DNA of 64,000 nt from IMG/VR virus record IMGVR_UViG_3300033232_000078. One strand, given 5' to 3'. Every line of letters begins with the position of its first letter. Positions within the stretch are counted from its first letter, which is position 1. The translations under genes were made by a program, and so were the position numbers. Source of the stretch: a virus. This document shows, piece by piece, positions 4,358 to 39,278 of the stretch. The notes under the pieces are model-generated. The model saw only the letters and a program-made list of their open reading frames with translations. It searched no databases and had not been told where the DNA came from.

Positions 4358-5136
4358 ACCTGTCCGCCCATCACACCCTTCCCAATATCCGGAAGTTCTT
4401 CGTACCTGATCCCGGTTTCACGATTGCCGATTCGGACCTCGATCGGGCCGACCTCCAGGTCGTGATCTGGGAAGCTGACGACGCGATGCTTAAGCGCGCC
4501 CTGAAAGACGGCGTAGATATTCACATAATGAACGGGATTGACCTTGACAATCTACCCATGCCACCTCTTGACGAGCTGGTCGAAACTCATGCTAACTACC
4601 CTGAGCATAAAGCCCGCTTCAAGAAGCAACGGCAACTCGCAAAGTCCTGGGTACACGGCACGAATTACGGAGGCTCGGCGGCAACTATGGCTCGCGCAGC
4701 TAAAATCAGCACAGCGCAAAGCGAGCTGCTTCAACGTCGCTGGTTCGCGGCGCACCCAGGGATCAAAGACTGGCACGATAGAACCGAGGCGTCCCTGCTG
4801 GCTACTCGATCCGTCACGAACAAGTTCGGATTCCGAAAGCTTTACTTCGACCGAATAGAGGCGTTGCTGCCGCAAGCCCTGGCCTGGGTTCCTCAAAGCA
4901 CGGTCGCCATCTACATCAATATGGTCTGGGACGCCATCGAGGACTCTGTGCACGAAGCCCAGGTCTTGCTCCAGGTCCACGACAGTCTCGTCTGGCAAGC
5001 CCCCACGCACACCTTCAACAGAACGGCAAGGACAATCCAAGAACTTGCATCCAAGATCATAGTGCCATATGATGATCCATTAGTGATTCCCTTGGGGGTC
5101 AAATCCTCAGTGGTCTCCTGGGGTGATGTAGATTAA
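4354..5136 (+). CDS. Family A DNA polymerase C-terminal part (palm/fingers, motifs A, B, C)
   Basis: Motif A SDLDRADLQV, motif B RQLAKSWVHGTNYG, motif C LQVHDSLV; ATGA overlap and GGAG RBS at 4343. Confidence 0.9.
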   Translation: MNLSAHHTLPNIRKFFVPDPGFTIADSDLDRADLQVVIWEADDAMLKRALKDGVDIHIMNGIDLDNLPMPPLDELVETHANYPEHKARFKKQRQLAKSWVHGTNYGGSAATMARAAKISTAQSELLQRRWFAAHPGIKDWHDRTEASLLATRSVTNKFGFRKLYFDRIEALLPQALAWVPQSTVAIYINMVWDAIEDSVHEAQVLLQVHDSLVWQAPTHTFNRTARTIQELASKIIVPYDDPLVIPLGVKSSVVSWGDVD

Positions 5137-5174
5137 TAACGGGGCGCATAATGCATCTTTATACGCCCCTTAAA
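5136..5174. promoter_or_regulatory. 39-bp palindrome family, site 1
   Basis: GGGGCGCATAA-TGCATCT-TTATACGCCCC (core 5141-5169), intergenic between polymerase and helicase-like gene. Confidence 0.8.
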
Positions 5175-5187
5175 AAGGATAACCTTA

Positions 5188-6384
5188 ATGGCACAACGCA
5201 AGACCAGGGACTGGCTTCAGGCCTTTATGCAGTACGCCTCCTACGGCGAAGCACCTTTGAAAATGTACTTTTGGGTCGGAGTCAGCACTATTGCGGGGGC
5301 ACTTCGCCGTAGGGTCTGGATCGACCAGAAGTACTTCCAATGGACTCCGAACTTTTATGTTATCTTGGTAGCCCCGCCTGGGATTGTTTCAAAATCCACC
5401 ACGGCTTCTGTGGGCATGAACCTTCTCAAGGAAGTCCCCGGCGTTACCTTTGGCCCGGATGTAGTGACTTGGCAAAAGCTTGTTGAGGATATGGGAAAGT
5501 CCACGGAAATGGTAATGAACCCTGAGACCGGCGAGTACATCCCAATGTCTTGCCTCACGGTGGCTTCGAGTGAATTCGGTACCCTGCTAAATCCACAAGA
5601 CCGGGAGATGGTAGACGTACTGGTGAGCCTTTGGGACGGTCAAGTCGGAACCTTTAAAAAGGCCACCAAGTCTTCTGGCAATGACTCCATCGAGAACCCT
5701 TGGATTAATATCATCGCCTGCACCACGCCGAGCTGGATCGCAGGCAACTTTCCCGAGTACATGATCGGCGGAGGCTTTACGAGTCGCTGTGTCTTTGTGT
5801 ATGCTGCCCATAAGCGCCAGTTCGTAGCCTACCCCGCTGACCACGTTCCAGAGGAATTCCTGGCCCAACGTGCTGCCCTGATTCATGACCTTGAGATTAT
5901 CTCTACCCTGGTAGGCGAGATGGAGCTTGACTCGGAGGCCAAATCCTGGGGTGAGCAGTGGTACCAGAACCACTGGACGGCTAAGCACCAGCATCTATCC
6001 CCTGACCAGTTCGGCGGATACCTCGCCCGGAAGCAGACCCATATCCATAAGCTCGCTATGATCTTCGCCGTTAGCGAATCCGATGAACTCGTCATTCACC
6101 GCCGGCATCTGGAAAAAGCCGCTGACATGGTTGACGCCCTCGAAGACGACATGCCTTACGTCTTCGACAAGATCGGCCGAACGCAAAGCACCCGGGCGCT
6201 GAATGACCTGTGCGAAATCGTAGCAGCCTATTCCCCCATCACACAACAAGACCTGTACCGGAGACTGAGCCGCCAGTGTACCTTTAAAGAATTCGCAGAC
6301 ATTCTGCAAAGTGCCATATCCGCGGGCTTCATCACCATCAAGCAGCAAGGCACCGAGACACTTGTCTCAGCAAAAAGGAGTTAA
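5188..6384 (+). CDS. DUF3987-like P-loop NTPase (putative replicative helicase), without a primase domain
   Basis: NFYVILVAPPGIVSKST (Walker A-like), SSEFGTLL, LVSLWDG, FTSRCVFVY motifs typical of DUF3987/YfjI-like proteins. Confidence 0.7.
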   Translation: MAQRKTRDWLQAFMQYASYGEAPLKMYFWVGVSTIAGALRRRVWIDQKYFQWTPNFYVILVAPPGIVSKSTTASVGMNLLKEVPGVTFGPDVVTWQKLVEDMGKSTEMVMNPETGEYIPMSCLTVASSEFGTLLNPQDREMVDVLVSLWDGQVGTFKKATKSSGNDSIENPWINIIACTTPSWIAGNFPEYMIGGGFTSRCVFVYAAHKRQFVAYPADHVPEEFLAQRAALIHDLEIISTLVGEMELDSEAKSWGEQWYQNHWTAKHQHLSPDQFGGYLARKQTHIHKLAMIFAVSESDELVIHRRHLEKAADMVDALEDDMPYVFDKIGRTQSTRALNDLCEIVAAYSPITQQDLYRRLSRQCTFKEFADILQSAISAGFITIKQQGTETLVSAKRS

Positions 6385-6385
6385 A

Positions 6386-6595
6386 ATGAAGACCTTCCAT
6401 AATACCATCACCCAGCTCGGATACTGTTGCCCGACCGAGTTCTTCTTGAAAAACGCAGGTATCCCGCACAAGGAATTAGCCGAGACCCTCGACCTGGCGC
6501 CTCGAACGATCCGCTTGCATAAGCAAATCGTCCAAGACGAAAGTGAGTGTCCCGGCCACGAGTCCTGTCTTAAAAGGATTCCCCAACATCCTTGA
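6386..6595 (+). CDS. Small helix-turn-helix protein with Cys residues
   Basis: HKELAETLDLAPRTIRLHK HTH-like segment; AGGAG RBS; last gene of the + arm. Confidence 0.6.
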   Translation: MKTFHNTITQLGYCCPTEFFLKNAGIPHKELAETLDLAPRTIRLHKQIVQDESECPGHESCLKRIPQHP

Positions 6596-9500
6596 TGACG
6601 CTACGATATCGCTTCTCAGTGCTGTCACCACGATCCAGCTTCCGATTCCGCTTCCTCATATTCCGGACGCTTTCCATCCGGTCCTTGACACTGATCTTCA
6701 TCTTGAAGTCCGGCACCTGTTCGTTGTACTCGTCAATCGCGGACTGGCTGGCCTTTCGCTTATCCAGGTCCTTCTCCCAAACAGCTTTGCGGTAGGATTC
6801 CAGCAACCCGGCACGGCGCGATCTCCAGTAGATTATCTCCCCGGTCTCCGAAAATTTCCGTTCCCGGTTCACTGCCAGTACCGCCGGGTTCCCCCCAAGC
6901 GCCATCATTGCCAGCTCATAATCCGACAGATCCCGGAAGTTCCCGGTCTCCAGATCCTTGACGATGCGCTCACCACCTTTCCCAGTAACGCCGTAAGTCG
7001 GCCGCAGGGTTTGCTTGTGATACGCATCGAGAGCTCTACCCATAGCACCTGTCGCGCCCGGCAATTCCTTCAGCATCTCAGGCACAGTGGCACGCCCCCC
7101 GACTACCTTGGGAGCCAGCATGGTAACCTTGATCAAATCCTCAAGCACCCCGCCGGCGGGCCCAGACACTTCGACGGCGCCTTTACCAAGCAGTTCCCCC
7201 ACATCATCATAGTTCCGATTCAGCATCTCAGTGCCCGGAATGATTTGACCCAAGCCGAAGCTTCCGCTCAAGTCCAATCCCCCTGCATTATGCAACAGCC
7301 CGTTCATAACCAGATTCGAGTCCATCCCATATTCTTTAAAGAACCTCCGCATCTCAAGCCTGATATTATCACCACCGCTGAGTTTCCGCCAAATCGCCTG
7401 CAGCATGTCCAGAATATTACTTCCGAATGGTAGGCCTTCCAATCCGCTGAGCAGCAAAAACATCAGCCAAAGCTTCGCAGTCGTGCCAAACACCCAAGGC
7501 CTTACCGCCCTACCTTCGGCCCGGAACTGCGCACGCTGCCCCCTTTCATAGCCACCGCTCATGATCCAGCCCATGAACTGCACATAGCTCAGAAAGATAA
7601 ACATCACGGCTTTCTTGCCACGCAAAAACTGGCTCCGGTTCCCTGCATCATAAGCATTCTGCAGCAACAGCGTTTTGCTCTTGGCATTTTCATAAGCCTG
7701 TTGCCGCGCCATCTCAAATTTCATACCGTTGTTTCTAAGCCGATCGAATTCCGCCGAGAAGAAACTCATCAGCGTCGATGCCCGGTTCAGCTTCTCCACC
7801 GTTCGAAAGGTCCACATGCCGGTTTCAATAAACTGCCTCGCCATATGCCCCATCGTCGTCCTGCGGAAATGGCGCAGCATCGCACTGCTGGTACTTTGTC
7901 CGGCGAGAAAATATGCATAGCTCTGGTCAATAATACCATCCCTGATGGCATCATTCATCACCGAGCTAAAGGCATTCCTCCGGATCATCTCAGCATTATC
8001 CTTTGCCTCACTGATCCAGCCCGCCGTGTCCATCTTATACTTAATGAGATCGTGCATGGCGCTGACCATATACCGGGAACCCTTAAGTTCTCCGTATTCC
8101 GTTGTCATGGCTGCGCCCGTATTAAGCATGGTGCTGAAGTTCAGCAATGCCGTCTTCATGTTATATGCCAGCATCATTAGCGTCACCCAGAGCCGAACGC
8201 CTTGAAACTCTTGGGTCGGATACAGCATATACGACTTGGTGTTCTCCATCATCTTGAGGTTCCGGCGGCGCAAAGCAATCAGTTTGGCCCGCTCGGCCGC
8301 AGGCATTCCCTGAGACTTATGCAACTCCCTGATTTCATACTGTTGCCATTGGATCGCCCTTGTAAAGTTTGCCCGGTAACGCAGCTTCCAGGTAAAGTTC
8401 GCATTGTGCCAGATGAAATCCGCGTAGTTCCTGACAAAGTCCTTGCTGGCTCCGTCAAGCTTACTCGTGGCATCCTCAAACCTCTTCGCGATCTTGTCCA
8501 CCATATCCGGCTGCATCAGTTCGGCCGCAGCGGCAATCTGCTCTTCCGAGAACAGTCCGGTATCCTGGAAGTTTTGCAGCATCGACACCGGCAGGTTAAC
8601 CGGAATTCCATCGAAGTCTTTGAACTCCTTGGTCGAGACCTTATATTGCTGGGGGTTCTCGTCCTGCTTTTGCAGCCAATATTCACTCGCCTTCTTAAAG
8701 CTTTCTTCCGATTCGAAGTGCTCGATATGCACTGGAGCATATTTCTTACCATTCTTCTTCTGGGACTCCTTAACAATCACGACGTAGTTCCCGAAGTGCC
8801 CCTGCGGCATAAACGGAGTCTCGTTGAGTTTTGCGAAGGTCTCCTTAATCTTCTGGTGAATCCGGGCAATCACCAGATCATTACCTTCGTATTTGCTGAC
8901 TGCCAGTTCAAACAGAATTTGCCGCTGGTGCTCGAACTGCACTTGAGCCGCATTTTTATAGTCCAGAATCAGTTGCGCGAGGTGCTGGCCATCATCCGTC
9001 TGGGGGTCAATGCCGTGTTGCCTTAGCTGCTCCCGGAACAGTTCCGAGGGCTGGAACACCAGTCGCCCGTGCCGGTCCTCCGCAAGCGCGGTCCAGTGCT
9101 TACCCGCTTTCCACTCCGCTGAAAGAAACCCGTCGATGAGGTTTTGCTTGGCGATACCAAGCGTGAGAATTTCTTTGGCAACTTGTTCTCCTTGGACTTG
9201 TAACTGGCTCTTGAAAGTCTCAGCCATGTTCACAGCTTTAACCATGCTCTGCATCGGCAAGTCAAATTCATTCCCGTACAGCGGAATCACAGCACGCTGT
9301 TGCATTTGTACGAGTTGATCAAAGGCCTTTCCGGCGAGCGCAACCCCCAGGGTCCACGGCTTCGCCAGGAACTCTTTGATTGGCCCCGTAAGGGTCTCGT
9401 GCGCCTGGGCCTGTACCGGAGACTCCAGATCAAAGTATTCCTTTTGCATCTGGCCTTCGAGTTGACCATCCGCCAGTTGTGATGCATCCCACACCAGCAC

Positions 9501-12500
9501 CTGAGTATCCTCAAAGGGCATTCCGGTGTTCTTGAGCACCACGCCATCATGACCTGCGGCTTGGGCTTGCTTCACCAGGCTTTGCATATCCGTGCTAGTA
9601 ACGGCCTGTCCGGGGTACTCAACCCGCATGGGGTTTTCCATCTTCACGAAATAATCACGAAGGTCCCGGATATCCTGCAGCCCCCAAGCCGGGTTCCGCC
9701 AGTTCGCACTCAGCGAGTACACTGGGGTCTCCCCGACCAGTGCTACCTGCCCAGTCCTGTACCAGTACCGCAGGGGTTCCTGTGTCGCAGCATTAAGCAA
9801 TTTGCTTTGGCCAAGCCACCGCTTGAAGAAAACACTCTGGGTACCGTCTTTCTCAAACGCCTGAATCGCATCCTCAATCTGGGCCTGACCTTCGACCCCA
9901 GCGCTATCCTGGGTATGCGCCAGCGGAATGTTCGGGCTCGCAGGATTCTCACGATCCCAGTGCACCACCAGACTGCTCCGCTTATCCGTTAAGTCCACCT
10001 CTAGATAATCAAGCCCATTTCGCTTGACCTTCTGCACCTTGTACTTCTCGGCCTTGAGGAATCCCTGAATGGTTTTCTCGTAGAAGTCAATCGTGGCGGT
10101 TTGTCCGCTTAACTGCTCGGCATAAATGCGTTCAGCATTTGCTAACGTTTCCTGGAACTGTGGGTCAGCTCGCTGTTCCTCTGAAGCAAATTGCTCTCGT
10201 GTCAGAGGTTCCTTAAATCCCTGGATCGCCATCACCGCACTCCGTAGGGGAAGCAACGCAGCCTTCTGACCAATCTCCGCCAGCTTCCCGAGCGTCTCCT
10301 GCAACACCCGTTCGTACCAGCGCTGGCGTAAGGCATCCAGTTTCTTAAAGCCTTCATCCCGCATTTCAGGATTGTATTCAGGGTCATATTCGGCTTCCAA
10401 AGGCTCAAAGATCTGATTGGCCTTTGCCATCAAATCCGCCTGCAATTCCCCAATGATAACTTTGCCTGGAATGTCCACAGGCGCATTCACCCGAATATGA
10501 GCCACCACGTCAGGCGAGTCTTGCCAGTGATCCCTGAAAGACTTGTCACCAAGCGCCCTCTCTCGGCTCACCCGTAGTGGCGCTGCCAAGACCCAAGTCG
10601 CGGCCCGAGCCGGATTCTCCTGCATGGCGTCCCAACCAGTTTCATTATAGGCAAACTCGTCCGGCGAGACATTTCGGAATTTCAGCGGAAGCACCCGATC
10701 CATAACCCAGGCAACTACATCCTCCCGGGGTACGCTGGGAAGGCCTTCAGTTTCCGCTGCTTCGAAGATTTGCTTCAAGGCTTGCTGATCTTGTTTTCGC
10801 AGGGTCTGCTGATTCATCAGGGCCTTGATGGTTTCTAGTTTAACCTGGGCTTTGTTCGGGAGGCGTTGAATCGCCCTGGTGGTATACTCCCTGTCAAATA
10901 GCAGACTATCCTGCAGCGCCCGCATCTTCTCGCGGGCTTCTTCATAAGCTCCAATCGAGATCCTGTGCCGGATGCTGCGCACCGTCAGGCTATCTGCCTC
11001 CACCTCACCATCCGCAATCATCTTGTCCAGTTCCTGCAGCATCAACCCTTTGGCCTCAACCCCAGTCGCCAGTTCAGCTTGCGGCGGCGTCACCTCTATA
11101 GGTGCCGGCTCTGGCGCTTGCAATGGCGCTTGCTCCACAACCTCGTCCAGCCCAAGATTCTTTCTAGCATTCTCCCGAAGCTCGGCTTGCTTAGCTTGCA
11201 CTTCTTTCGAAAGTTGCTGCGCCCCTCGAGGCCGACGCTTCATCGCAGCATTCTTGGCGGTTAAATCCTCCAGCCATTCGTTGAACTTCACGCCCGGCTT
11301 GATCACGCCTTCCTTCTTGAGCATGGTGAAGAAGTCCCGGAGCTTCCCAATGATATCCGAGAAGAACTTGTTCAGTGGGCTCTGTGCCAAATCCCCTTTT
11401 GCGTAGGCCGCTCGGCTCATCTGCTCGGCGAAGTATTCGTCAAAGCTCAGTGCATACTTCATACCCCCCGGAAAGGCACTTTCAATCAAATCCTTGGCGC
11501 TGGAACCCTCCAAAGTTTTGCCCTGGGGTACCCGTTTCCTGGCCCATTCATATGGGTCCATATTCTGGGTATTTTCTTTCTTGATTCCAGCCCCATGCTT
11601 CCGGGGACCGGCCCAGGTATCCAGCCACTCCTTCGCAGTCATCACGCCGGACTCAACGCGCTGCTTGGTATCCAGCCATTCCTGGACCAAGCCCACTTCC
11701 AGGGGCGCAGTTTCCGCGAGTGCACTGAGCTGCTCGGGCGTCGCATTACCCAGCTTCGTGATGCTCTGAATGGTGTTCTTGACCTCCTCGCCAACCCGAG
11801 CTTTGAGGCCTTCAAAGAAAGCTTCCTCTGCCATACCATGCCCGAACTCGTGGCTTAGTGCTGTAAGGCTTTCCATCCGGGTCTGGCTGTTACCACCACC
11901 CTGGTACTTAAGGCTCGGCATTTCCCTGGGCGTAATCACATGGATGATGTTACCCTTGGTGTCCACTGCCCTTTGGTACGCCCCAAAGGTACTGGTGTCA
12001 CTGAGACTGTCGTAATTGATTATGATCCTGGCATTCGGCATATACTTCCGAACCCACTGTTGCACCGAATCATTCAGCGCCCGGCGCATCCCGCTCGGAT
12101 AGTTCCGCTCGTCATTGCGCGCAATCAGCCCCGTAACTACGCCCGGCGACAAGAACCCAACTTGCAGCGGCGTCAGGCCATCCATTCTGGCATCGCTGCT
12201 CGAGTCAAAGATTCTTTGCGAATGCGGCACAGTGCTGGGACCTTCCTCACCAGCCCGACGCTCCATCACCTCCGGGGACATGCCGCCAACGTCCTGGCTT
12301 GTGCTGTCCTGGAACAGTTCATCCAGCGTCCGAACCATATCAGGACCACTTTCCGCTGCCGGCGCTTCAATGCCTTTGGTGAGCTGCTCCAGCCGGGCAT
12401 CCGCCTCTGCGGCCTGTTCGGGGGTCAAGGTTTCGAGGGATTGTGGGGGCGTATAATCTTCTTTTATGCGCCCCGCCAATGCATCCAGTTCTTCCATCGC

Positions 12501-13418
12501 CACCTTGGCATCCACCCCGGGCGCGTCCACTGCAACCGGCTGCTTCGTACCATCAGCCTTTTCATAGACATACTGGATACCTTGCCCAACAGGCGCCATT
12601 GCCCCGCCCATCACGGCACCTGAGAGGCCTGCCTCAAATCCCCGCTGCAGCATATCCCCAGCCGAAATATCCGTATATCCTGAGATATTGGATTCCAAAT
12701 CCTGGGTACCTTGCGTTGCGGCTTCCTGCACGAACTCGGCCGCACCCAGCTTAACCACCCGCTTTCCAAGCTTCCCAACCTCCATCAAGGCACTCAGCCC
12801 AGGAGCTTCGAGCGCTGTGGAAACCGCCCCGACAATGCCGGCACTCCGGGTCGCCTGCTCATCCGTCGCACCTTCCTGCAAGGCCTCACCGTACGCCCCG
12901 CTGGCCTCGAGCGGATAGTTTGCACCAAGCCCCACCGCCATCGAAGCCGCCGGATTCCGGGTTGCCGCATAAGTCGCAAGTCCTGCGGTACTGGGCAAAA
13001 TGCTCTCAGCCGCACCACCAACAACCCGATCAAACATCGAGTGCTCAGCCCCCTCAGGCCGCTGCCGCCCCATATCCGCAGCATGGAGGTTGCGATTCAG
13101 CCTGGCTTCCTCAAAGCTCGCAATGTCTTTTTTGCGATCCTGCTGAAGTTTTGATGCCCTGGGGCTGGCCTTAATCGCATCCTGGTACTCGGGCTTATCC
13201 AGCCACTGATCCGCCGGGTCAACCCGGTTCGCGTACAGCTTAAGGTTCGCCGCCGTCAGTGGTAAACTTTGCGCCATCCGAGCCGGGAAGGTCTTCACGG
13301 ACTCCATAACCGAAGGCCCCTTGGGAGCCTCGTCCGGGTCCACAAAGCTCATTTCGTCGGGATCAACAAACCCAGTTGCTTTGGGCTTGCCCACTTCATC
13401 AGGATCAATAAAAGCCAT
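6570..13418 (-). CDS. 2282-aa DNA ejection (internal virion) protein with polyvalent-protein domains
   Basis: Last gene of structural arm after pilot-like genes; HEFGH and EYFAE zincin motifs; ART-PolyVal-like segment FKRWLGQSK...GHDGVVLKN...VLVWDASQL. Confidence 0.8.
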   Translation of the reverse strand: MAFIDPDEVGKPKATGFVDPDEMSFVDPDEAPKGPSVMESVKTFPARMAQSLPLTAANLKLYANRVDPADQWLDKPEYQDAIKASPRASKLQQDRKKDIASFEEARLNRNLHAADMGRQRPEGAEHSMFDRVVGGAAESILPSTAGLATYAATRNPAASMAVGLGANYPLEASGAYGEALQEGATDEQATRSAGIVGAVSTALEAPGLSALMEVGKLGKRVVKLGAAEFVQEAATQGTQDLESNISGYTDISAGDMLQRGFEAGLSGAVMGGAMAPVGQGIQYVYEKADGTKQPVAVDAPGVDAKVAMEELDALAGRIKEDYTPPQSLETLTPEQAAEADARLEQLTKGIEAPAAESGPDMVRTLDELFQDSTSQDVGGMSPEVMERRAGEEGPSTVPHSQRIFDSSSDARMDGLTPLQVGFLSPGVVTGLIARNDERNYPSGMRRALNDSVQQWVRKYMPNARIIINYDSLSDTSTFGAYQRAVDTKGNIIHVITPREMPSLKYQGGGNSQTRMESLTALSHEFGHGMAEEAFFEGLKARVGEEVKNTIQSITKLGNATPEQLSALAETAPLEVGLVQEWLDTKQRVESGVMTAKEWLDTWAGPRKHGAGIKKENTQNMDPYEWARKRVPQGKTLEGSSAKDLIESAFPGGMKYALSFDEYFAEQMSRAAYAKGDLAQSPLNKFFSDIIGKLRDFFTMLKKEGVIKPGVKFNEWLEDLTAKNAAMKRRPRGAQQLSKEVQAKQAELRENARKNLGLDEVVEQAPLQAPEPAPIEVTPPQAELATGVEAKGLMLQELDKMIADGEVEADSLTVRSIRHRISIGAYEEAREKMRALQDSLLFDREYTTRAIQRLPNKAQVKLETIKALMNQQTLRKQDQQALKQIFEAAETEGLPSVPREDVVAWVMDRVLPLKFRNVSPDEFAYNETGWDAMQENPARAATWVLAAPLRVSRERALGDKSFRDHWQDSPDVVAHIRVNAPVDIPGKVIIGELQADLMAKANQIFEPLEAEYDPEYNPEMRDEGFKKLDALRQRWYERVLQETLGKLAEIGQKAALLPLRSAVMAIQGFKEPLTREQFASEEQRADPQFQETLANAERIYAEQLSGQTATIDFYEKTIQGFLKAEKYKVQKVKRNGLDYLEVDLTDKRSSLVVHWDRENPASPNIPLAHTQDSAGVEGQAQIEDAIQAFEKDGTQSVFFKRWLGQSKLLNAATQEPLRYWYRTGQVALVGETPVYSLSANWRNPAWGLQDIRDLRDYFVKMENPMRVEYPGQAVTSTDMQSLVKQAQAAGHDGVVLKNTGMPFEDTQVLVWDASQLADGQLEGQMQKEYFDLESPVQAQAHETLTGPIKEFLAKPWTLGVALAGKAFDQLVQMQQRAVIPLYGNEFDLPMQSMVKAVNMAETFKSQLQVQGEQVAKEILTLGIAKQNLIDGFLSAEWKAGKHWTALAEDRHGRLVFQPSELFREQLRQHGIDPQTDDGQHLAQLILDYKNAAQVQFEHQRQILFELAVSKYEGNDLVIARIHQKIKETFAKLNETPFMPQGHFGNYVVIVKESQKKNGKKYAPVHIEHFESEESFKKASEYWLQKQDENPQQYKVSTKEFKDFDGIPVNLPVSMLQNFQDTGLFSEEQIAAAAELMQPDMVDKIAKRFEDATSKLDGASKDFVRNYADFIWHNANFTWKLRYRANFTRAIQWQQYEIRELHKSQGMPAAERAKLIALRRRNLKMMENTKSYMLYPTQEFQGVRLWVTLMMLAYNMKTALLNFSTMLNTGAAMTTEYGELKGSRYMVSAMHDLIKYKMDTAGWISEAKDNAEMIRRNAFSSVMNDAIRDGIIDQSYAYFLAGQSTSSAMLRHFRRTTMGHMARQFIETGMWTFRTVEKLNRASTLMSFFSAEFDRLRNNGMKFEMARQQAYENAKSKTLLLQNAYDAGNRSQFLRGKKAVMFIFLSYVQFMGWIMSGGYERGQRAQFRAEGRAVRPWVFGTTAKLWLMFLLLSGLEGLPFGSNILDMLQAIWRKLSGGDNIRLEMRRFFKEYGMDSNLVMNGLLHNAGGLDLSGSFGLGQIIPGTEMLNRNYDDVGELLGKGAVEVSGPAGGVLEDLIKVTMLAPKVVGGRATVPEMLKELPGATGAMGRALDAYHKQTLRPTYGVTGKGGERIVKDLETGNFRDLSDYELAMMALGGNPAVLAVNRERKFSETGEIIYWRSRRAGLLESYRKAVWEKDLDKRKASQSAIDEYNEQVPDFKMKISVKDRMESVRNMRKRNRKLDRGDSTEKRYRSVIKDVGESF
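12441..12479. promoter_or_regulatory. 39-bp palindrome family, site 2 (inside the ejection-protein CDS)
   Basis: TTGTGGGGGCGTATAA-TCTTCTT-TTATGCGCCCCGCCAA. Confidence 0.8.
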
Positions 13419-13433
13419 AGCAGTTCCTTTTTA

Positions 13434-14537
13434 TTAGTTGCCGAATTTCTCGTTAGCTCTGCGCTGAATCTCTGCGAGCGGTACATTCGGATTCGCGGCC
13501 TTTGCGCGTTGAATCCAGTCAGCCTTTTGGGCTGTCGTTGCCTTGGTGCCACCCCGGCCAGTCGCAGGCGTCACCCCACCTTGCTGCCGACCTTTAATCA
13601 GCCGGTCAGCTTCTGCCAGCAAAGCATTCCGCTCATCATCATCCTCAGTCAGCTCAGCCAGTTTCAGCAAATCCGCGGCGCTGTTAGTCTTGCTGGTGCT
13701 TTGCACTCCAAGAGTGGCTTGGGCAATCCGCTGGTCATAAGCCGCATCCGTTTCCCCGGCTTCCTTGGGATTCGCCCGGCGCACGAGTTCCTCCACATCC
13801 CGCTTGGCTTGCCCCGCCGCAGGGATCTTATTGGCGTTGATACGGTCAGTTTTGACCCGCTCATTCCGGGCCCAGATTGCACTTTCCTTGTCTTTCTTGG
13901 TGAGTTCCCACGCCGCCTTCAGGTTCCCGTTTTGAAATTCTTGCTCAACCAGTTTAGCATCTTCAACAAGACCTTTGCGCTTAAGGTTTGCGATACCGAG
14001 TTCAATTTCCTCAATAGCTTGCCCACGGGTTTTCGCATAGAAGTTATTCGAAGCTTCAGCTTTTTCAGCATCGGCAGTACCTTTACGAATATCCAATTCA
14101 TGCTTTTGATCCTCCATCCCTTGCTTGCGTTGCTTGTCCCTGGCATCCAGCTGGTTCTGCTTCAACATCTGGTTCGTCATCACCCCAGTCGCTGCGGCAT
14201 TTCCGAATTGCTGTCCGACGGATTGCCCAGGCTGACGCCCCTGCAGCAGCTTCAGCCCAACCATCATCATGATATCCTTGGCATTCGGCTGTGCCATCAG
14301 CCCGTCCAGTAAGGTCCGCCAACCCTGCTTGCGTTGCTCCAGCTCCGCTGGGTCCTGGGTAGGTTGTTGCGGCATAGCAGTACCTTGCGCACCTGCACCT
14401 TGGGGGGCCACCTCAGGCATACTGGGCAACGGCGCAGGCACGGCGCCCCCTTGCGGCATCCCCGGCACATAGGGCATTTGCTGGGGCTGAGCCTGCCCTT
14501 GCTGTGCCTGCATGATAATATCTTGAAAGTTAGCCAT
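13434..14537 (-). CDS. Putative DNA ejection protein (Q/P-rich N-terminus, helical C-terminus)
   Basis: Position between pilot-like gene and giant ejection gene; composition; AGGAA RBS. Confidence 0.65.
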   Translation of the reverse strand: MANFQDIIMQAQQGQAQPQQMPYVPGMPQGGAVPAPLPSMPEVAPQGAGAQGTAMPQQPTQDPAELEQRKQGWRTLLDGLMAQPNAKDIMMMVGLKLLQGRQPGQSVGQQFGNAAATGVMTNQMLKQNQLDARDKQRKQGMEDQKHELDIRKGTADAEKAEASNNFYAKTRGQAIEEIELGIANLKRKGLVEDAKLVEQEFQNGNLKAAWELTKKDKESAIWARNERVKTDRINANKIPAAGQAKRDVEELVRRANPKEAGETDAAYDQRIAQATLGVQSTSKTNSAADLLKLAELTEDDDERNALLAEADRLIKGRQQGGVTPATGRGGTKATTAQKADWIQRAKAANPNVPLAEIQRRANEKFGN

Positions 14538-14542
14538 GATGC

Positions 14543-15076
14543 TTATCTCCCGTAAAGCAGTTGCGCCAGCGTCGGGCGACCCTGTTGGGCTTGTGCCTGA
14601 AGCATTTGCGGATCACGCACTGAGGTACCGCCCTGTAGGCTTGGCGGATTCGGCGCACGGGGCTGCCCCTGACCCTGGTTCTGACCTTGACCCAGTAACT
14701 GCATCATCTGCATAGCCTGCAAGCCAGCGCCCATTGCATTTCCACCTTGTCCGAACTCCAGCGGAGCCGCCGGCGCCTGTTGCATCCCAGGATCAGGTTG
14801 TGCCATCCCAGGAACCTGACTCATTTGGGGAGGCGGTACCGGGGTCAGTGCACTTCCATCCGGACTCGGTTGCATTGGGACCTGCCCAGGAGCCCCGGCC
14901 TGTTGAAGCATCCCCGAGAAGCTGCCCGGCGCGCCCGGAACCTGGCTCATTTGTGGGGCACCCTGACGCCCGACCTGCGCCAGCAATTCCGGGGGAGGTG
15001 CACCTTTGTTGGCAAGCATATCCACCAGGGATTCCCGATTTTGGGGTTGTGTCAGTTGATTCATCCAATCCATCAT
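14543..15076 (-). CDS. Putative ejection protein, low-complexity Q/P/G/M-rich
   Basis: Position in ejection cluster; GGAG RBS. Confidence 0.6.
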   Translation of the reverse strand: MMDWMNQLTQPQNRESLVDMLANKGAPPPELLAQVGRQGAPQMSQVPGAPGSFSGMLQQAGAPGQVPMQPSPDGSALTPVPPPQMSQVPGMAQPDPGMQQAPAAPLEFGQGGNAMGAGLQAMQMMQLLGQGQNQGQGQPRAPNPPSLQGGTSVRDPQMLQAQAQQGRPTLAQLLYGR

Positions 15077-15088
15077 TTTCGTCTCTCC

Positions 15089-16000: not shown

Positions 16001-16003
16001 AGT

Positions 16004-16438: not shown

Positions 16439-16671
16439 ACAGCAGAGCTAAACACATAAACGCCTCGGCCACTCCCCGGGTTCCAGCTTGTACCATCGGC
16501 AAAAACCACCAGACCTTCGCGCGGCTTCCCCGGCGCACTGTAACGCTCCACCAGCTGCACTGAGTCAAACGTCCGAGCTTCCAGGTCAAGTGCAAGCCTC
16601 TGAAGTTCGGATTCCACAAAAAGCCTGAGGCTTGCTAAATCCCCTTGCGGGGGTGTCCCTGGAACAAACAT
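16423..16671 (-). CDS. Hypothetical virion protein
   Basis: Tightly packed between nozzle and GNAT genes; P..G.VVFADGTSWNPGSG.GVY motif. Confidence 0.6.
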   Translation of the reverse strand: MFVPGTPPQGDLASLRLFVESELQRLALDLEARTFDSVQLVERYSAPGKPREGLVVFADGTSWNPGSGRGVYVFSSAVWVKL

Positions 16672-27758: not shown

Positions 27759-27797
27759 TTGTGGGGGCGTATAAAGATTAATTATACGCCCCCACAA
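27759..27797. promoter_or_regulatory. 39-bp palindrome family, site 3 (perfect 16-bp arms; may also act as terminator after the capsid gene)
   Basis: TTGTGGGGGCGTATAA-AGATTAA-TTATACGCCCCCACAA; followed by TTACTTTT on the minus strand. Confidence 0.85.
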
Positions 27798-27823
27798 ATC
27801 ACACAGAAAAACCCCCCAGTTAC

Positions 27824-34551: not shown

Positions 34552-35065
34552 TTGGTTCTTGCACCACCTCGACCAGTTCGCCTTGGATGGCGGCCTTGAA
34601 CTGACCTTGCGCCTTCATCACATTCCGGGCGGCGTCCAAGTCGTCTTGGCTCAGCAGAAACACATTTTGCTGATTGACCTGAAGGCCCCCTTGGTTGGCG
34701 CCGAAGCCGTTCCGGGCGCTGGCGGGGGCGTAGCCCATCCGGTGCAGAGCCTTGTCCGCCGCATCCAGAATATATTCCGGGTCCTCCGAGTCCGCGATTT
34801 TTTCCGCGAGCCGGTCGAGCGCGATGTCCGCGACCACCTTGAGCTTCTCCGGGATGCTCATCGCACAGTGGTTATGAATATTCTGGAGCTTCTCCTGGAA
34901 TTCGGCCTGGAAAACATCGCTGTGGATGACGGTACTGAGCCAGGCCTGGCTGACGCCGAAATGGTCGGCGCACTGGCGCAACGGCTTGTCCGGATTCAGC
35001 ACCATCCAGTTCATTATCATTGAATGTTTATGGGAGATTTTTTGAATTTGGGCGGACTCAGCCAT
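34520..35065 (-). CDS. Putative terminase small subunit (N-terminal HTH)
   Basis: First gene of the late arm; LRQCADHFGVSQAWLSTVI HTH; GGAG RBS. Confidence 0.65.
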   Translation of the reverse strand: MAESAQIQKISHKHSMIMNWMVLNPDKPLRQCADHFGVSQAWLSTVIHSDVFQAEFQEKLQNIHNHCAMSIPEKLKVVADIALDRLAEKIADSEDPEYILDAADKALHRMGYAPASARNGFGANQGGLQVNQQNVFLLSQDDLDAARNVMKAQGQFKAAIQGELVEVVQEPSALPSADGAA

Positions 35066-35235
35066 GGCGTTGTCTCCGAAACGGTTTAGGTATGCATACT
35101 GTATGCCCGGCGGGTTTGGGAGGCAACTACTGGATTTATTAACGGGACCGCTAATTCCACTTTAACTCTAGAAATCCGTAAGTGCATTCCCCCCTGGTAT
35201 GCGGGGTGCGAAGGGGGGCGGTACGGTATGCACGC

Positions 35236-35248
35236 TAAGTCGTTGATT
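35236..35248 (-). promoter_or_regulatory. IHF consensus site
   Basis: Minus strand AATCAACGACTTA matches WATCAANNNNTTR. Confidence 0.5.
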
Positions 35249-35269
35249 TGTAACGGATTTTTCCCGGGC

Positions 35270-35297
35270 TTGCATTCCAGCCCAGTCGGCGTATTAT
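35270..35297 (+). promoter_or_regulatory. Putative sigma70 promoter for the first early gene
   Basis: TTGCAT-16bp-TATTAT. Confidence 0.45.
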
Positions 35298-35422
35298 ATA
35301 CATATGGACGCCAGGAACAGGTTACCAGGTCCCAGGGTCCAGGTTGGACCGGCGAAGCTGCATAGGGCAGTAGAGTCGAGGTGCATTATGCATCGAGCAG
35401 TATTCATTTTGGAGATTTTACC

Positions 35423-35920
35423 ATGAGTGCAAAACAGAAGTTTCTCTCGAAAGTCACGCCCAGCGATATTGGGGGCAAGGACCAAGTAGTTGCCTTTGTT
35501 CTCGGCAATGGGTTGCGGGTTGAGGCGGACTTAAAGCAAGTCTCGCCGGACATGATAACGCAGCTCGCATTGCACGGGCTCAGCCAGAAGGTAGGCGACG
35601 CAAGCGCCGGGTTCTCGAAACTGCAAGACTTTTCTGGTGCCTTCGGCGCGATGCAGCAGGTAGTGGATAATCTGTACAGCGGCCAATGGAGCACCCGAGG
35701 CCAGGGCGGCGGACTCAGTGACTTGGTGCAGGCAATCTGTGAACTGCGCGGGGTTGAGCCGGATGCAGCTCAGTCGGCGATCGAAGCGATGGATGAGGAG
35801 CAGTTGAAGAGGGTTACCAGCCATCCTCAAGTCAAAGCCAAGATTGCGGATATCAAAGCAGCAAGGCTGACCAAGGCCGCAGAAGGCGCGGCGGATCTGG
35901 ATGACTTGTTAGACCTGTAG
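35423..35920 (+). CDS. Early protein A, paralog of 38571-39072
   Basis: GGAG RBS before ATG 35423; followed by a strong terminator. Confidence 0.8.
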   Translation: MSAKQKFLSKVTPSDIGGKDQVVAFVLGNGLRVEADLKQVSPDMITQLALHGLSQKVGDASAGFSKLQDFSGAFGAMQQVVDNLYSGQWSTRGQGGGLSDLVQAICELRGVEPDAAQSAIEAMDEEQLKRVTSHPQVKAKIADIKAARLTKAAEGAADLDDLLDL

Positions 35921-35947
35921 TCCCTCGTCCCTCGTCCCAGGTCCCAT

Positions 35948-35977
35948 ACCCCCAGAGCAATCTGGGGGTTTTTTTTT
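35948..35977 (+). terminator. Rho-independent terminator
   Basis: ACCCCCAGA-GCAA-TCTGGGGGT followed by a T run. Confidence 0.9.
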
Positions 35978-36012
35978 ACGCCTTATGCATATGCCTTGCC
36001 GAGGCGGGGCGG

Positions 36013-36068
36013 GCTCTGGGAGATTGGCGCTTGGATCTGGGAGCTTGGAGCTTGGAGCTTGGCGCTCA
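36013..36068 (+). repeat. Eight degenerate tandem heptamers (three exact GAGCTTG)
   Basis: GCTCTGG GAGATTG GCGCTTG GATCTGG GAGCTTG GAGCTTG GAGCTTG GCGCTCA. Confidence 0.7.
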
Positions 36069-36140
36069 ATGCATTCACGAGGCCGGGCTGTGGCCCGGAT
36101 TCTCGCAGGTCTTGCATATGTGCTCGCAGGGGGTAGGTAA

Positions 36141-36179
36141 TTGGCGGGGCGGATAACAAAGTATTATGCGCCCCCACAA
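36141..36179. promoter_or_regulatory. 39-bp palindrome family, site 4
   Basis: TTGGCGGGGCGGATAA-CAAAGTA-TTATGCGCCCCCACAA. Confidence 0.8.
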
Positions 36180-36410
36180 TACCCTACGGCGCGTCCAAAC
36201 CATAGGGATGCCCTACCATACCCAATTCCTCCGAACGCCGCATGGCGACCCCATCCCGGGCGCGGTAGCCCCATTCCCAACACCCCTACCCCCCCACATT
36301 AGCCCCATCCCGAAATACTATATCCCTGATTCATTCTAACCCGCATTGAGGCCCAATGATAAGCATTCATAGCAATGGTGCAATGATTCGGAGTACCCCC
36401 CACACTCCCA

Positions 36411-36449
36411 TTCACGGGGCGCATAATAAATCATTATACAGCCCGCCAA
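36411..36449. promoter_or_regulatory. 39-bp palindrome family, site 5
   Basis: TTCACGGGGCGCATAA-TAAATCA-TTATACAGCCCGCCAA. Confidence 0.75.
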
Positions 36450-36644
36450 TTCTTCAGCTCATGGTCAATGCACTGTATTTAAGGTTCTAAGTTTTTTTTT
36501 TTATAAACATACTAACTAACTACCCCAGGCTACACATTAACGGGGCGCAGAATGGCCGGGGGAAAGGGGGTATGGCAAAATCATTGCACCATTACAATCA
36601 ATGCATTCCAATGCTCCCCATTGCCTTTCAGCCCACATCAAGGC

Positions 36645-36673
36645 TTGACAACCTTACAAAATCATACCACAAT
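36645..36673 (+). promoter_or_regulatory. Early sigma70 promoter P1
   Basis: TTGACA-accttacaaaatcatac(17)-CACAAT. Confidence 0.8.
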
Positions 36674-36704
36674 CCCAAATGCAGCACTCACAAAAGGAAC
36701 CCGG

Positions 36705-37181
36705 ATGAAAATATACTCAAAAGACACACCGATGTGGCAAGCGTATGAGGAATTATTCCTCAACACTACAGCGCCAGACATATTTAATGAAGTATCCCAA
36801 CACTTTGAGCCCGCCCCAATACAAATCCCTTGCCAAACCAAGGGCGAGGCCCTGAATCTGGCGATGGGGCTCAATGCATGTCAAATTCAAGACTTTATGG
36901 AGAAAGGCACTCCGAAGAGTTTTATCACAAAGAGTGCCAAGGCCAAGATACTACCCAACGGCGAGCCTGTGCTGGAAATAAGCGTAAGCTATCGGCATCG
37001 ACCTAAGCCCCGGAAGGTCGACAGTGCCTTGGGCAAAATCCTCAAACAAAGCCAAGATCAGAGCAAGGAAACGCAAGTGCAACCAGCAGGCTCTGGCCGG
37101 GGGGAAATCACGGAAGAGCAGCGCATTCAGCATCAAGAAGCTGAGGATGCTAAAATCAGAAAACTAATGGGGCTAGAATAG
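36705..37181 (+). CDS. Hypothetical early protein
   Basis: AAGGA RBS before ATG 36705, downstream of P1. Confidence 0.7.
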   Translation: MKIYSKDTPMWQAYEELFLNTTAPDIFNEVSQHFEPAPIQIPCQTKGEALNLAMGLNACQIQDFMEKGTPKSFITKSAKAKILPNGEPVLEISVSYRHRPKPRKVDSALGKILKQSQDQSKETQVQPAGSGRGEITEEQRIQHQEAEDAKIRKLMGLE

Positions 37182-37182
37182 C

Positions 37183-37416
37183 ATGGCCCGGCTTGATACT
37201 GCACTCACATATACAGAACTTGCCTTGATGATACGAGCCAAGTACGCCAGCCGGGCTGTCCCAAGCGACGTTATGCATATGCAATTTGATGACTATGCGG
37301 CAACGGTTTGCCAGGTCTGGGACGAAACCGACGGCAAGCTTCATGCAATAATCAAGCGCAACGTCAAGGGCAACATCAGCATCTTGTTTAAAAGCCATCC
37401 AGCCAAAGGAGAATAA
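37183..37416 (+). CDS. Hypothetical early protein
   Basis: Tightly packed in operon. Confidence 0.6.
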   Translation: MARLDTALTYTELALMIRAKYASRAVPSDVMHMQFDDYAATVCQVWDETDGKLHAIIKRNVKGNISILFKSHPAKGE

Positions 37417-37419
37417 GCC

Positions 37420-37752
37420 ATGCCAAAGCCAAAGCCAAAGCCAAAGCCAAGCGAATTGCAAATCGCAACCCAAGCTTACAACGGTATCCGGTGGCAACTC
37501 AAAGGCAGCGCCAAAATAGTCCAAAGACTCATGCATAGGGTCCCCGAGCAGGGCTTGCTAATCAGCCCTGGTGCAACCCCCTGGCCGGAATACCCCAAGC
37601 AACTCAAAGCAAAGCTATGCAACGCGCTCGAATCCGCCCAGAACCAGCTCGAATATTGCGAATACCTGTGCAAAATGCTCAGCCAATCCCACAGTGAAGC
37701 CTATGCACATACCCAGAAACTAACCAAAACCAAGGAGACTCAAGATGATTAG
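37420..37752 (+). CDS. Hypothetical early protein with N-terminal (PK)n
   Basis: AGGAG RBS; (GCCAAA)4 at 37422-37445. Confidence 0.65.
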   Translation: MPKPKPKPKPSELQIATQAYNGIRWQLKGSAKIVQRLMHRVPEQGLLISPGATPWPEYPKQLKAKLCNALESAQNQLEYCEYLCKMLSQSHSEAYAHTQKLTKTKETQDD

Positions 37753-38167
37753 GAAACTCATACTAGGCTTAATGCTTAGCTCAATCCCAACGCTCGCGCC
37801 CGCCGACCCACTAATCGAGTACCAGCTCCCAGACCTCGGTACCAGCGCCAGCCCCCAGTACCAGATCACTACAACCGGGAAGCTCCAGGCCGGGTATCTG
37901 GTCCTGCATACCCTGGATTGGATGCAGACCCTCACCATCGCAAGGAACCCGGACCGATGGCACGAAACCAACCCGATTCTCGGCAATCACCCCTCGGTGG
38001 CCCAGGTCAACCAGTACTTTCTGGCAACCGGCATCGCACACACCCTGATTACCGCGCACCTCCCCCAGCGCAAGGCCCGGCTCTGGCTCGGGGCCACCAG
38101 CATTATGCAACTCGGCTTCGTGATGCATAACCGGAACCTCGGCATCGGCCTCAACGTCAAATACTAA
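37745..38167 (+). CDS. Exported/membrane protein with signal peptide and ExNPILG motif (DUF5658-like)
   Basis: MIRKLILGLMLSSIPTLAPA signal-like N-terminus; LDWMQTL..., HETNPILG; AGGAG RBS. Confidence 0.65.
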   Translation: MIRKLILGLMLSSIPTLAPADPLIEYQLPDLGTSASPQYQITTTGKLQAGYLVLHTLDWMQTLTIARNPDRWHETNPILGNHPSVAQVNQYFLATGIAHTLITAHLPQRKARLWLGATSIMQLGFVMHNRNLGIGLNVKY

Positions 38168-38180
38168 AGGAATATGCATA

Positions 38181-38438
38181 ATGCAAACCAAGCTTGAAAG
38201 CCTGCTGGAATCCGGCGTCAACATAATCATAGGGTATCTGATTGCCCTCGCCAGTCAAATCCTAATCTTCCCCCTATACGGTATCCAGATCACTCTGAGC
38301 ACCAACCTCTGGATCGGGCTATGGTTTACCCTGGTAAGCCTCGTCCGGTCGTACCTTCTGCGCCGGTACTTCAACCAGCGAGTGCATAAAGCCATTCATA
38401 ATCTGATTAAGGAAAACTCAAATGCATCAAATGCATAA
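38181..38438 (+). CDS. Two-TM phage membrane protein
   Basis: SLLESGVNIIIGY...QILIFPLYG...FTLVSLVRSYLLRRYFN, a widespread phage membrane-protein pattern. Confidence 0.75.
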   Translation: MQTKLESLLESGVNIIIGYLIALASQILIFPLYGIQITLSTNLWIGLWFTLVSLVRSYLLRRYFNQRVHKAIHNLIKENSNASNA

Positions 38439-38472
38439 GCCCAACAGCCCCCCACAAAAGCTCGTATAATGC

Positions 38473-38501
38473 TTGACAACCTTACCGCAACCATGCATTA
38501 T
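38473..38501 (+). promoter_or_regulatory. Early sigma70 promoter P2
   Basis: TTGACA-accttaccgcaaccatg(17)-CATTAT. Confidence 0.75.
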
Positions 38502-38537
38502 GCATATTCGGTTCCGGGAAATGCATATTCGGTTCCG
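38500..38537 (+). repeat. 17-bp direct repeat ATGCATATTCGGTTCCG x2
   Basis: Copies at 38500-38516 and 38521-38537. Confidence 0.85.
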
Positions 38538-38570
38538 ACTCACCCTCAACTTTTTTAAGGAGCATCACGA

Positions 38571-39072
38571 AATGACTGCAGAAACCCAAACCGCCGCTGA
38601 AACCAAGAAGCCCAAGTTCTGCGACAAATCCAGCGAAGGCACGACCGCCTCGTTTACCTTCGGCGACGGCACCGTGCTGTCCCTGGACGTGTCCAACCTG
38701 ACCGAAGAAATCCAAACCGAGCTGATGCTCCACGGCGCCCTGCAGAAAATCGGTGACAGTTATGCTGGTGCGGCTGGCGACTACGCGTATGCCAAAGCCC
38801 AGGCCGAAAAGGTCATCCAGAATCTGGTCGATGGTGTCTGGAAGGCCGCCCGTGAAGCCGGCGAGTCCAAGCCCAAGTCCGGCGAACTGGTGCAGGCCCT
38901 GGCGGAACTCAAAGGCCTCGAGGTCGAAGCCGTTGCCGCAGCCGTCGAGGCTATGGACGAAGAGCGCCGCAAGGCCGTCCGCAGCCACCCTGCGGTCAAG
39001 GCGAAAATCGCTGAACTCCGCGCCCGCAAGGCCAACGAGGCGGCTGCCAAAGCCGGCGCACTGGACTTCTAA
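38571..39072 (+). CDS. Early protein B, paralog of 35423-35920
   Basis: AGGAG RBS before MTAETQ (ATG about 38572); strongly C/G-ending codons; followed by terminator. Confidence 0.8.
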
Positions 39073-39135
39073 GCAACCTTTGCTTTGCCTCCCTCGATAG
39101 GAATAAGCATACCCAATGCGATTTCCTACCGCCTT

Positions 39136-39172
39136 AGCCCCGCGATGCCCTATGCATCCTGGGGCTTTTTTT
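39136..39172 (+). terminator. Rho-independent terminator
   Basis: AGCCCC..GATGC-loop-GCATC..GGGGCT followed by a T run. Confidence 0.8.
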
Positions 39173-39206
39173 CGGCCACTATACAGCATTCCAGCGAATA
39201 ATTTGC

Positions 39207-39235
39207 TTGACAACCTTGCCGGTGGGTGGGACAAT
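39207..39235 (+). promoter_or_regulatory. Early sigma70 promoter P3
   Basis: TTGACA-accttgccggtgggtgg(17)-GACAAT. Confidence 0.8.
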
Positions 39236-39239
39236 TCAA

Positions 39240-39278
39240 TTGTCGGGGCGCATAATTAATTTTTACCCGCCCCGCCAA
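39240..39278. promoter_or_regulatory. 39-bp palindrome family, site 6 (covers predicted start site of P3)
   Basis: TTGTCGGGGCGCATAA-TTAATTT-TTACCCGCCCCGCCAA, beginning 4 bp after the -10 box. Confidence 0.75.

Follow-up and report, generated by a model that had tools for sequence, protein, structure and literature searches.

Dispersed, lineage-specific palindromes in SU10-like podophages: candidate operators of a small ribbon-helix-helix protein

The viral sequence IMGVR_UViG_3300033232_000078 (64,000 nucleotides, the whole of which is referred to here as the window) belongs to an SU10-like podophage and carries six dispersed palindromes, each with two arms about a 7-bp spacer, which raises the question of what recognizes them, and whether as DNA or as RNA. 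An initial annotation had likened them to XerC/lox-type sites in a phage with no recombinase, and had proposed that they form a genome-wide network of binding sites for one dimeric protein. Here we describe the sites, their synteny and lineage-specific sequence in related phages, their overlap with predicted promoters, and the predicted fold and predicted dimer of a 65-residue ribbon-helix-helix (RHH) protein, and we infer that a protein binds the sites, that the RHH protein is this binder, and in which direction it regulates. The explanation that we favour, with moderate confidence, is that the six palindromes are double-stranded DNA operators of one phage-encoded dimeric protein, most likely the RHH product of the gene at 41793–41990.

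All six sites were recovered at the positions first reported (Table 1), within a 44,082-bp genome that the window writes 1.45 times, everything from 44083 onwards repeating 1–19918. They share the form GGGGCGNATAA-N7-TTATNCGCCCC, an 11-7-11 palindrome set within a looser TTG-N2 ... N2-CAA frame, and lie far above shuffled sequence: the full pattern with up to three mismatches is found six times in the genome unit and not once in 30 dinucleotide shuffles, and the arm GGGGCGCATAA with at most one mismatch is found 16 times in the window against 1.42 expected, with 4 the largest count in 100 shuffles. One arm is exact in five of the six sites, as had been noted, and site 3 has a T at position 7 of both arms. 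The sites are spread round the genome with no gap larger than 15.3 kb. Two of the earlier statements about them hold in part. Sites 4 and 5, placed originally in a long non-coding region, do lie together in an ORF (open reading frame)-free stretch (35970–36550), but the region also holds a gene (35381–35920) and a canonical terminator (35948–35969). Similarly, sites 1, 2 and 6 do lead with the exact arm on the sense strand, but no such polarity is seen in the related genomes G001 and G002, and we treat it as weak; a reading of the exact arm and its −10-like CATAAT as marking promoter or replication polarity was dropped, as these hexamers often occur on both strands and the relatives lack the polarity.

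The relationships of the sites emerge from comparison with related phages. A capsid search of IMG/VR returned 114 relatives, from which 20 complete or near-complete genomes were assembled; together with Microcystis phage Mel-JY34, the nearest named phage (59% capsid identity), these make up a comparison set of 21, and further contigs were fetched through homologues of one small protein. A megablast search of 20 kb against 50,697 phage records gave zero matches. De novo palindrome-family searches and consensus scans identified palindrome families elsewhere too, in eight of these 21 genomes (complete or near-complete) and in several partial contigs; simple k-mer counting did not reveal them. Each family consists of 3–7 palindromes of about 29 bp (six in G001, five in G002 and seven places in G005, against at most 0.03 expected by chance), and the half-site is uniform inside one genome and different between lineages, with 7–8 motif groups counted (Table 1). 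The exact pattern of the window has no match in 185,579 bacterial and archaeal species genomes, a single match among viral contigs, in the relative L001, and three among metagenome contigs, one of them in a relative (L106) and the other two (L105 and L107) in one unrelated contig. In the 12 other genomes the capsid gene is followed only by ordinary UUCG-type terminators, and a shared palindrome is found neither there nor in the gap between the polymerase and helicase genes.

No palindrome position is common to all of the genomes, and several are nevertheless shared between lineages. A copy in the polymerase–helicase gap is present in the window, G001, G002, G003, G005, G007, G009, G010, Mel-JY34 and L099/L101, and a copy in the post-capsid gap is present in most family-bearing lineages; the copy within the giant virion gene is found at the aligned codon position in only the window and its sister lineage (26208 in G001 and 15260 in G002), where it falls in a poorly conserved linker that reads ..AGRIKEDYTPPQ.. 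in the window and ..KGRELNQSTSQ.. in G001/G002. Copies are orthologous across lineages at 47–78% capsid identity. At the intragenic site the place is kept and the sequence changes together with the genome's own intergenic copies, and this concerted change of half-sites points to a co-evolving, lineage-specific and sequence-specific trans-acting factor. The 7-bp spacer, different at each site as originally described, is 7 nt in all nine window-type copies and in all 14 copies of G001 and G002 while its sequence varies, and its length is constant in most lineages; the L104 orthologue of site 6 has the same two arms, including the degenerate right arm, around an unrelated 7-nt spacer. The motif differs in sequence between lineages, but palindromes recur at several of the same places, and the initial proposal of a network serving one dimeric protein, by repression or roadblocking rather than recombination, appears strengthened by them.

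Six lines of evidence favour recognition of the palindromes as double-stranded DNA. The first is their relation to predicted promoters. A strong predicted sigma70-like promoter of the form TTGACA-17-TATAAT abuts the left arm in G001 (1965), G002 (38973) and L101 (1143); the left arm contains a predicted −10 box, or the palindrome takes up both spacer and −10, at G001 12109, G002 29360, G005 5758 and Mel-JY34 1679; and one copy stands just upstream of a predicted −35 box in L099 (1865). In the window, site 6 begins at the predicted start of promoter P3, as had been claimed, and of the four strong predicted sigma70 promoters with the extended −35 element TTGACAACCTT (36645, 38473, 39207 and 42004, all on the plus strand) it is only the one at 39207, P3 itself, that has a palindrome. 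Where the predicted start or −10 is within the palindrome, RNA from that promoter cannot contain both arms, and the variable placement relative to predicted promoters is the pattern of repressor operators. Secondly, 46 of 55 deviations from the lineage half-site consensus (84%) affect just one of the two arms, so that the pairing is broken. Thirdly, there is the spacer, fixed in length and free in sequence. Fourthly, at all four asymmetric sites of the window (1, 2, 5 and 6) the sense RNA folds 3.5–7.5 kcal/mol worse than the antisense RNA (C·A as opposed to G·U), the opposite of what is expected under selection for an mRNA hairpin. Fifthly, five of the six copies have no U-tract, site 3 alone having a partly T-rich tail in the sense direction, and site 1 scores as a terminator on the antisense strand only; canonical terminators with a hairpin and U-tract exist apart from the palindromes (35948 and 39147), which are therefore not what this phage ordinarily uses as terminators. 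Finally, Rfam gave no matches at gathering thresholds over the whole genome unit.

The most substantial alternative is that the palindromes are RNA hairpins within transcripts, serving as attenuators, 3′-end stabilisers or RNase processing sites, and several observations count in its favour and against purely DNA-level recognition. The polymerase–helicase and post-capsid positions, which are the most widely conserved, have no convincing promoter, and all promoters and transcription starts considered here are predictions. The post-capsid copies are the most perfect palindromes and form perfect hairpins, that of site 3 having 16 bp and about −27 to −28 kcal/mol; arm position 7 shows compensated changes, reading T:A in the window, C:G in L001 and G:C in L106; and a hairpin follows the capsid gene in nearly all relatives, showing across the wider family covariation, G·U pairs in the capsid sense and a T-rich tail. 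More distant relatives have ordinary terminator hairpins at this place. In addition, most copies lie 15–40 nt upstream of a start codon, and a lineage-specific phage factor might read the hairpins, much as lambdoid N proteins read boxB. As an account of the family as a whole we nonetheless consider it unlikely, in view of the predicted starts within palindromes in several relatives, the uncompensated deviations, the poorer sense folding, the missing U-tracts with true terminators nearby and the lack of an Rfam match, and also of the conservation of stem sequence between copies, which simple hairpin function does not need. For the post-capsid copy, the compensated changes and the ordinary terminators at that place in distant relatives suggest that it probably also acts as an RNA hairpin. 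We note beside it, immediately upstream of site 3, a short C5/G6 hairpin across the capsid stop codon, followed by T5 (27798–27830, minus strand), which may be a weak terminator of the conventional kind.

What, then, might bind the sites? Of the four candidates named by the initial annotation, the RHH-like protein encoded at 41793 is favoured by its modelled fold, its predicted dimer, its position in the operon and its co-variation with lineage. Neither Pfam nor PHROGs provides a name for any of the small early proteins, this one included. Its AlphaFold2 model, built from a 28-sequence alignment, has a predicted local distance difference test (pLDDT) score of 88 and shows an extended N-terminus and helices at residues 22–32 and 44–59, giving a strand-helix-helix order, and a conserved YGARS motif fits the G-x-S/T-type turn that precedes helix B. 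A Foldseek search of the PDB with the model returned nothing; with VIA-align about three quarters of the top 40 matches are RHH proteins, with Z scores only up to 4.3, and these include the repressors and antitoxins omega, CopA, TraM, SvtR, NikR, PutA and AmrZ. The predicted homodimer scores 0.61 compared to 0.00 for the best control, a mark reached by 20 of 30 solved homodimers and one of 23 monomers, and its interface includes residues 11–25. On these models, the protein can be assigned to the RHH (Arc/MetJ/CopG) superfamily and is predicted to be dimeric.

Among the early proteins shared with relatives it has the only recognizable sequence-specific DNA-binding fold, and hidden Markov model (HMM) searches find homologues in 19 of 22 genomes; a pattern-based search of viral contigs for further RHH loci retrieved only contigs already in the set. 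There is no predicted terminator between P3 and the RHH gene, and P3 is the sole palindrome-bearing promoter of the window operons; the layout of this predicted operon is that of negative autoregulation by the RHH protein. In the eight genomes and contigs checked (the window, G001, G002, G003, G005, L099, L101 and L104) the RHH gene is preceded, 1.1–3.4 kb away on its own strand, by a palindrome at or near a predicted promoter, and the spacing is similar in Mel-JY34; contigs L160–L162, from P0005, end short of the promoter region and give no informative site. The β-strand of the protein differs between motif groups (DWKVWIP, EWKVRVP, RWRIEVK, DWHVSVD, RWNISIP, TFYLD/TFYLS and HKIYLD), and is the same or nearly so within the pairs G001/G002, G003/Mel-JY34 and G007/G010. 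Within these same pairs the RHH proteins are 59–74% identical, compared to 89–93% for the capsid and helicase, and the sequences thus mark the protein as a putative fast-evolving regulator. A supposed exception, in which G003 and G004 lacked both the RHH gene and the palindromes, was discarded: the HMM finds the RHH gene in both, and G003 has a palindrome family of its own.

Several points weigh against the assignment of the RHH protein as the binder. Its covariation with the half-site is confounded by phylogeny, as the pairs that share a motif are close relatives (89–93% capsid identity). The window and L104 proteins have W and H, respectively, at a β-strand residue that probably faces the DNA, yet the arms of their sites are identical. 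RHH homologues are also present in ten genomes in which no palindrome family was found, and the conserved G-rich blocks of the palindromes are about 23 bp apart, wider than in classical Arc/CopG-type operators. We therefore regard the link as correlative and suggestive. Two of the other candidates fare less well: nothing specific supports ParB-type loading, the ParB_N domain (residues 2–71) being fused to an N6_N4 methylase with no helix-turn-helix (HTH) detected, and for the HTH candidate, an ORF at 6311–6595, five relatives contain no homologue. One lineage has an HNH endonuclease gene inserted immediately downstream of the RHH gene (L101 4362–4931, L102 2197–2766) that its close relative L099 lacks. 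The G001-type RHH protein (P0003/L113) carries the NCBI label Methylocaldum sp., on a contig of 51.5 kb of which a 15.7-kb stretch that was read contains phage-like or unannotated genes only; this binning label is a weak clue to a methanotroph host.

If the palindromes are operators of the RHH protein, then at promoter-linked copies, such as site 6 at P3 and many in the relatives, the bound protein would block RNA polymerase, and at P3 it would negatively autoregulate its own operon. Copies without a promoter, after the polymerase gene, within the giant gene and after the capsid gene, could act as roadblocks to elongation or as attenuators in the manner of mycobacteriophage stoperators. We speculate, tentatively, that such a stoperator-like system sets gene dosage along two long operons, rather than immunity, in a phage group with no sign of lysogeny genes. 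Attenuation would take place downstream of the capsid gene, ahead of the helicase gene and even within the giant virion gene, and at the capsid 3′ end a single element would work at two levels, as RHH-bound DNA and as an RNA hairpin. As part of the same speculation, the 7–8 co-evolved pairs of protein and site would, if true, amount to a natural recognition code for RHH β-ribbons.

A second alternative makes the palindromes DNA sites for replication or genome handling, whether as hairpins on which a helicase or primase loads, as multiple origins, as cruciforms, or as places where the ParB-domain methyltransferase is loaded, and we consider it improbable. One copy is always next to the helicase gene, copies occur all round the genome, and the polarity of the exact arm flips from site 4 to site 5 and again from site 1 to site 2, as expected for two diverging replication arms; however, G001 and G002 do not share this polarity, many copies sit precisely on predicted −10/+1 positions, which replication sites do not need, and a 44-kb genome with six to seven origins would be out of the ordinary. 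The ParB_N-methylase has no detected parS-type HTH, methylases recognize targets much shorter than these palindromes, and the 29-bp palindrome of the window is unlike the parS consensus, a 16-bp palindrome read by the HTH domain of ParB. Two copies do lie in the ORF-free region together with a 7-bp tandem repeat (GGAGCTT ×3, 36040–36060) and a T11 run (36492–36502), which are themselves candidates for an origin or for physical genome ends. The early control region (35000–39200) is also enriched for another short palindrome of unrelated sequence, TGCATWATGCA / ATGCAT, with 14 occurrences of TATGCATA in the genome, and may be a second operator or a methylation target.

The palindromes could also be selfish or neutral repeats with no regulatory role, similar to miniature inverted-repeat transposable elements or repetitive extragenic palindromes, or homogenised by gene conversion through the phage's own recombination genes (for a Sak4-like annealing protein and a PD-(D/E)XK nuclease), since palindromes can spread and self-correct. 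This is very improbable given the orthologous positions across lineages, including an in-frame intragenic copy without an indel, the conserved arms and diverged spacers of the window and L104, the absence of the motif from bacterial genomes, and a stable copy number of 3–7 per genome. As for recombination, dif is an asymmetric, single-copy chromosomal site with an XerC and an XerD arm of 11 bp each about a centre of 6–8 bp, and the E. coli XerC arm, GGTGCGCATAA, is one base of 11 different from the window arm; the right arm of the window has only TTATG in common with the XerD arm. Likeness to dif is confined to the phage lineage of the window, and both window arms are one half-site, mirrored. 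That the palindromes are Xer/dif-like sites for host XerC/XerD, or for an unrecognised phage protein of tyrosine-recombinase fold, is therefore scarcely credible in spite of this likeness, the fitting 11-bp arms and 7-bp spacer, and the recombinase-fold repressor that acts on dispersed repeats in SPbeta (PMC10516654): the half-sites at these places in relatives are unrelated to dif (such as GGGACGGTGAT, GCGCAWTTCA and GTGGATATTAT), the second arm does not resemble that of XerD, none of the bacterial and archaeal genomes searched contains the pattern, and, in agreement with the initial annotation, no Phage_integrase or other tyrosine recombinase was found among the 30 ORFs compared with Pfam, the other small ORFs being outside that scan and eight of them compared with PHROGs only.

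Table 1. Palindromes, associated features and lineage half-sites; positions are those of the window.
Feature	Position	Strand	Description
Site 1	5136–5174 (core 5141–5169)		Between the C-terminal PolA ORF (4354–5136) and the DUF3987 helicase gene (5188–6384)
Site 1, second written copy	49218–49256		Wrap-around with identical flanks, offset 44,082; no separate site
Site 2	12441–12479		In frame inside the 2282-residue virion gene (6570–13418, minus strand); reads LAGRIKEDYTPPQ
Site 2, second written copy	56523–56561		Wrap-around of the window; no separate site
Site 3	27759–27797		Perfect palindrome with 16-bp arms; 26 nt past the capsid stop, 21 nt before the next ATG (27737)
Site 4	36141–36179		ORF-free control region
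Site 5	36411–36449		ORF-free control region; most degenerate copy, 8 of 11 arm pairs complementary
Lone half-site GGGGCGCAGAA	36542–36552	+	Start of the first early gene; no partner arm; may be chance
Promoter P3	39207–39235	+	Predicted sigma70, TTGACA-17-GACAAT with TG; predicted start ~39241–39243
Site 6	39240–39278		At +1 of predicted P3, upstream of the gene starting at 39312
RHH gene (candidate binder)	41793–41990	+	65 residues; last gene of the P3 operon, next predicted promoter 42004
Half-site, window/L104/L001/L106			GGGGCGNATAA-N7
Half-site, L099/L100/L101			GGGGRCGWTAA-N8
Half-site, G001/G002			GGGACGGTGAT-N7
Half-site, G005			GGCGGGGTAA-N7/8
Half-site, G003 and Mel-JY34			GCGCAWTTCA-N7
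Half-site, G007/G010			GTGGATATTAT-N7
Half-site, G009			TGGGGAGGTTAA-N8
Half-site, L002, L163			Further variants of GGGG-NNN-ATAA type

The genome has an SU10-type portal and capsid, with the early and replication genes on the plus strand, from about 36552 across the junction to 6384, and the virion genes on the minus strand, from 35065 down to 6570. Products of the former include the ParB_N-methylase, a UDG-PolA protein in two ORFs, the DUF3987 helicase, the PD-(D/E)XK nuclease and the Sak4-like annealing protein, and those of the latter include the terminase, portal, capsid and the 2282-residue protein. The early genes at 35381–35920 and 38473–39072 encode two proteins that are paralogues. 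In the window (2711–5136) and in L099/L100 the gene for the family A polymerase is divided between two ORFs; L101 has an additional 97-residue ORF between the halves, and G001 (16977–19313), G002 and Mel-JY34 have a single ORF of 778–810 residues. The 'direct terminal repeats' of G001, G002 and G004 are each exactly 127 bp, and because of this identical length they look like the assembler overlap of circular contigs rather than genome ends. L103 has masked runs of N in intergenic positions (6763–6840 and 15092–15165) that could hide regulatory sites. The unrelated metagenome contig that matches the window pattern is 76 kb long and has no protein similarity to the window; its palindrome, a perfect GGGGCGAATAA-N7-TTATTCGCCCC (3141–3169 in L105 and 3884–3912 in L107), adjoins a terminator-like hairpin.

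Should the palindromes prove to be operators of the RHH protein, they would provide a testable regulatory circuit for a large and almost unstudied group of environmental SU10-like podophages. The operators, in at least seven lineage-specific versions, and the fast-evolving RHH proteins would then constitute a natural experiment on the reading of DNA by β-ribbons, and the pairs could supply orthogonal repressor/operator combinations. An operator kept at one codon position while its sequence is rewritten would also mean that a cis-acting element strongly constrains the coding sequence of a structural gene.

Several known systems resemble the one proposed here. At the level of the protein the nearest parallels are RHH repressors such as P22 Arc and Mnt, omega, CopG and NikR, small dimers with a two-stranded β-ribbon that recognizes operators of palindromic or repeated sequence, and with autoregulation. 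Arc and Mnt each act at a single operator of about 21 bp, whereas the sites described here are dispersed over the genome; the conserved G-blocks, in a 6-17-6 arrangement, come close to the geometry of NikR, whose two 6-bp half-sites are separated by 16 bp. A further difference is that the candidate binder has no extra tetramerisation domain. The conserved inverted repeats (CIRs) of Streptomyces phage phiC31 occur at many intergenic positions, some by promoters or terminators, and are bound by the c repressor; they are 17 bp long, and belong to a temperate siphovirus with a repressor of another family. With intrinsic terminators the palindromes share a G+C-rich stem-loop, and the copy that follows the capsid gene stands where a terminator or attenuator is classically found, but the palindromes depart from terminators in the general lack of a U-tract, in their shared stem sequence, and in the copies over predicted promoters or inside an ORF.

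Two other comparisons concern single motifs repeated along a phage genome, and the first of them is the nearest overall. The repressor of Cluster A mycobacteriophages (L5 gp71, Bxb1, TipsytheTRex) both blocks initiation and stops elongation at its operators and stoperators, and repressor and motif diverge together among the subclusters (PMC9283540, PMC6550527). As with stoperators, the palindromes present one motif in many copies, which lie at an early promoter and in short gaps between genes, and occasionally inside a gene. Stoperators are asymmetric sites of 13–14 bp, present at 24–36 per genome, oriented with transcription and bound by a monomeric HTH repressor in temperate phages, whereas here there are 3–7 symmetric 29-bp palindromes of 11-7-11 form, the binder is probably an RHH dimer and no lysogeny genes are apparent. 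In SPbeta, the SPBRE repeat was predicted in silico at several intergenic places decades before its binder was known, and is the site of the master repressor MrpR (PMC10516654), which bears on the initial annotation's idea of recombinase-like sites in a phage with no recombinase. MrpR has a tyrosine-recombinase fold and a 15-bp motif, unlike the system described here, in which no recombinase-fold protein was detected among the 30 ORFs compared with Pfam. Set beside these systems, the palindromes most likely represent a kind of phage gene control that is already known, in a new example from the SU10-like phages, rather than an Xer/dif recombination site.

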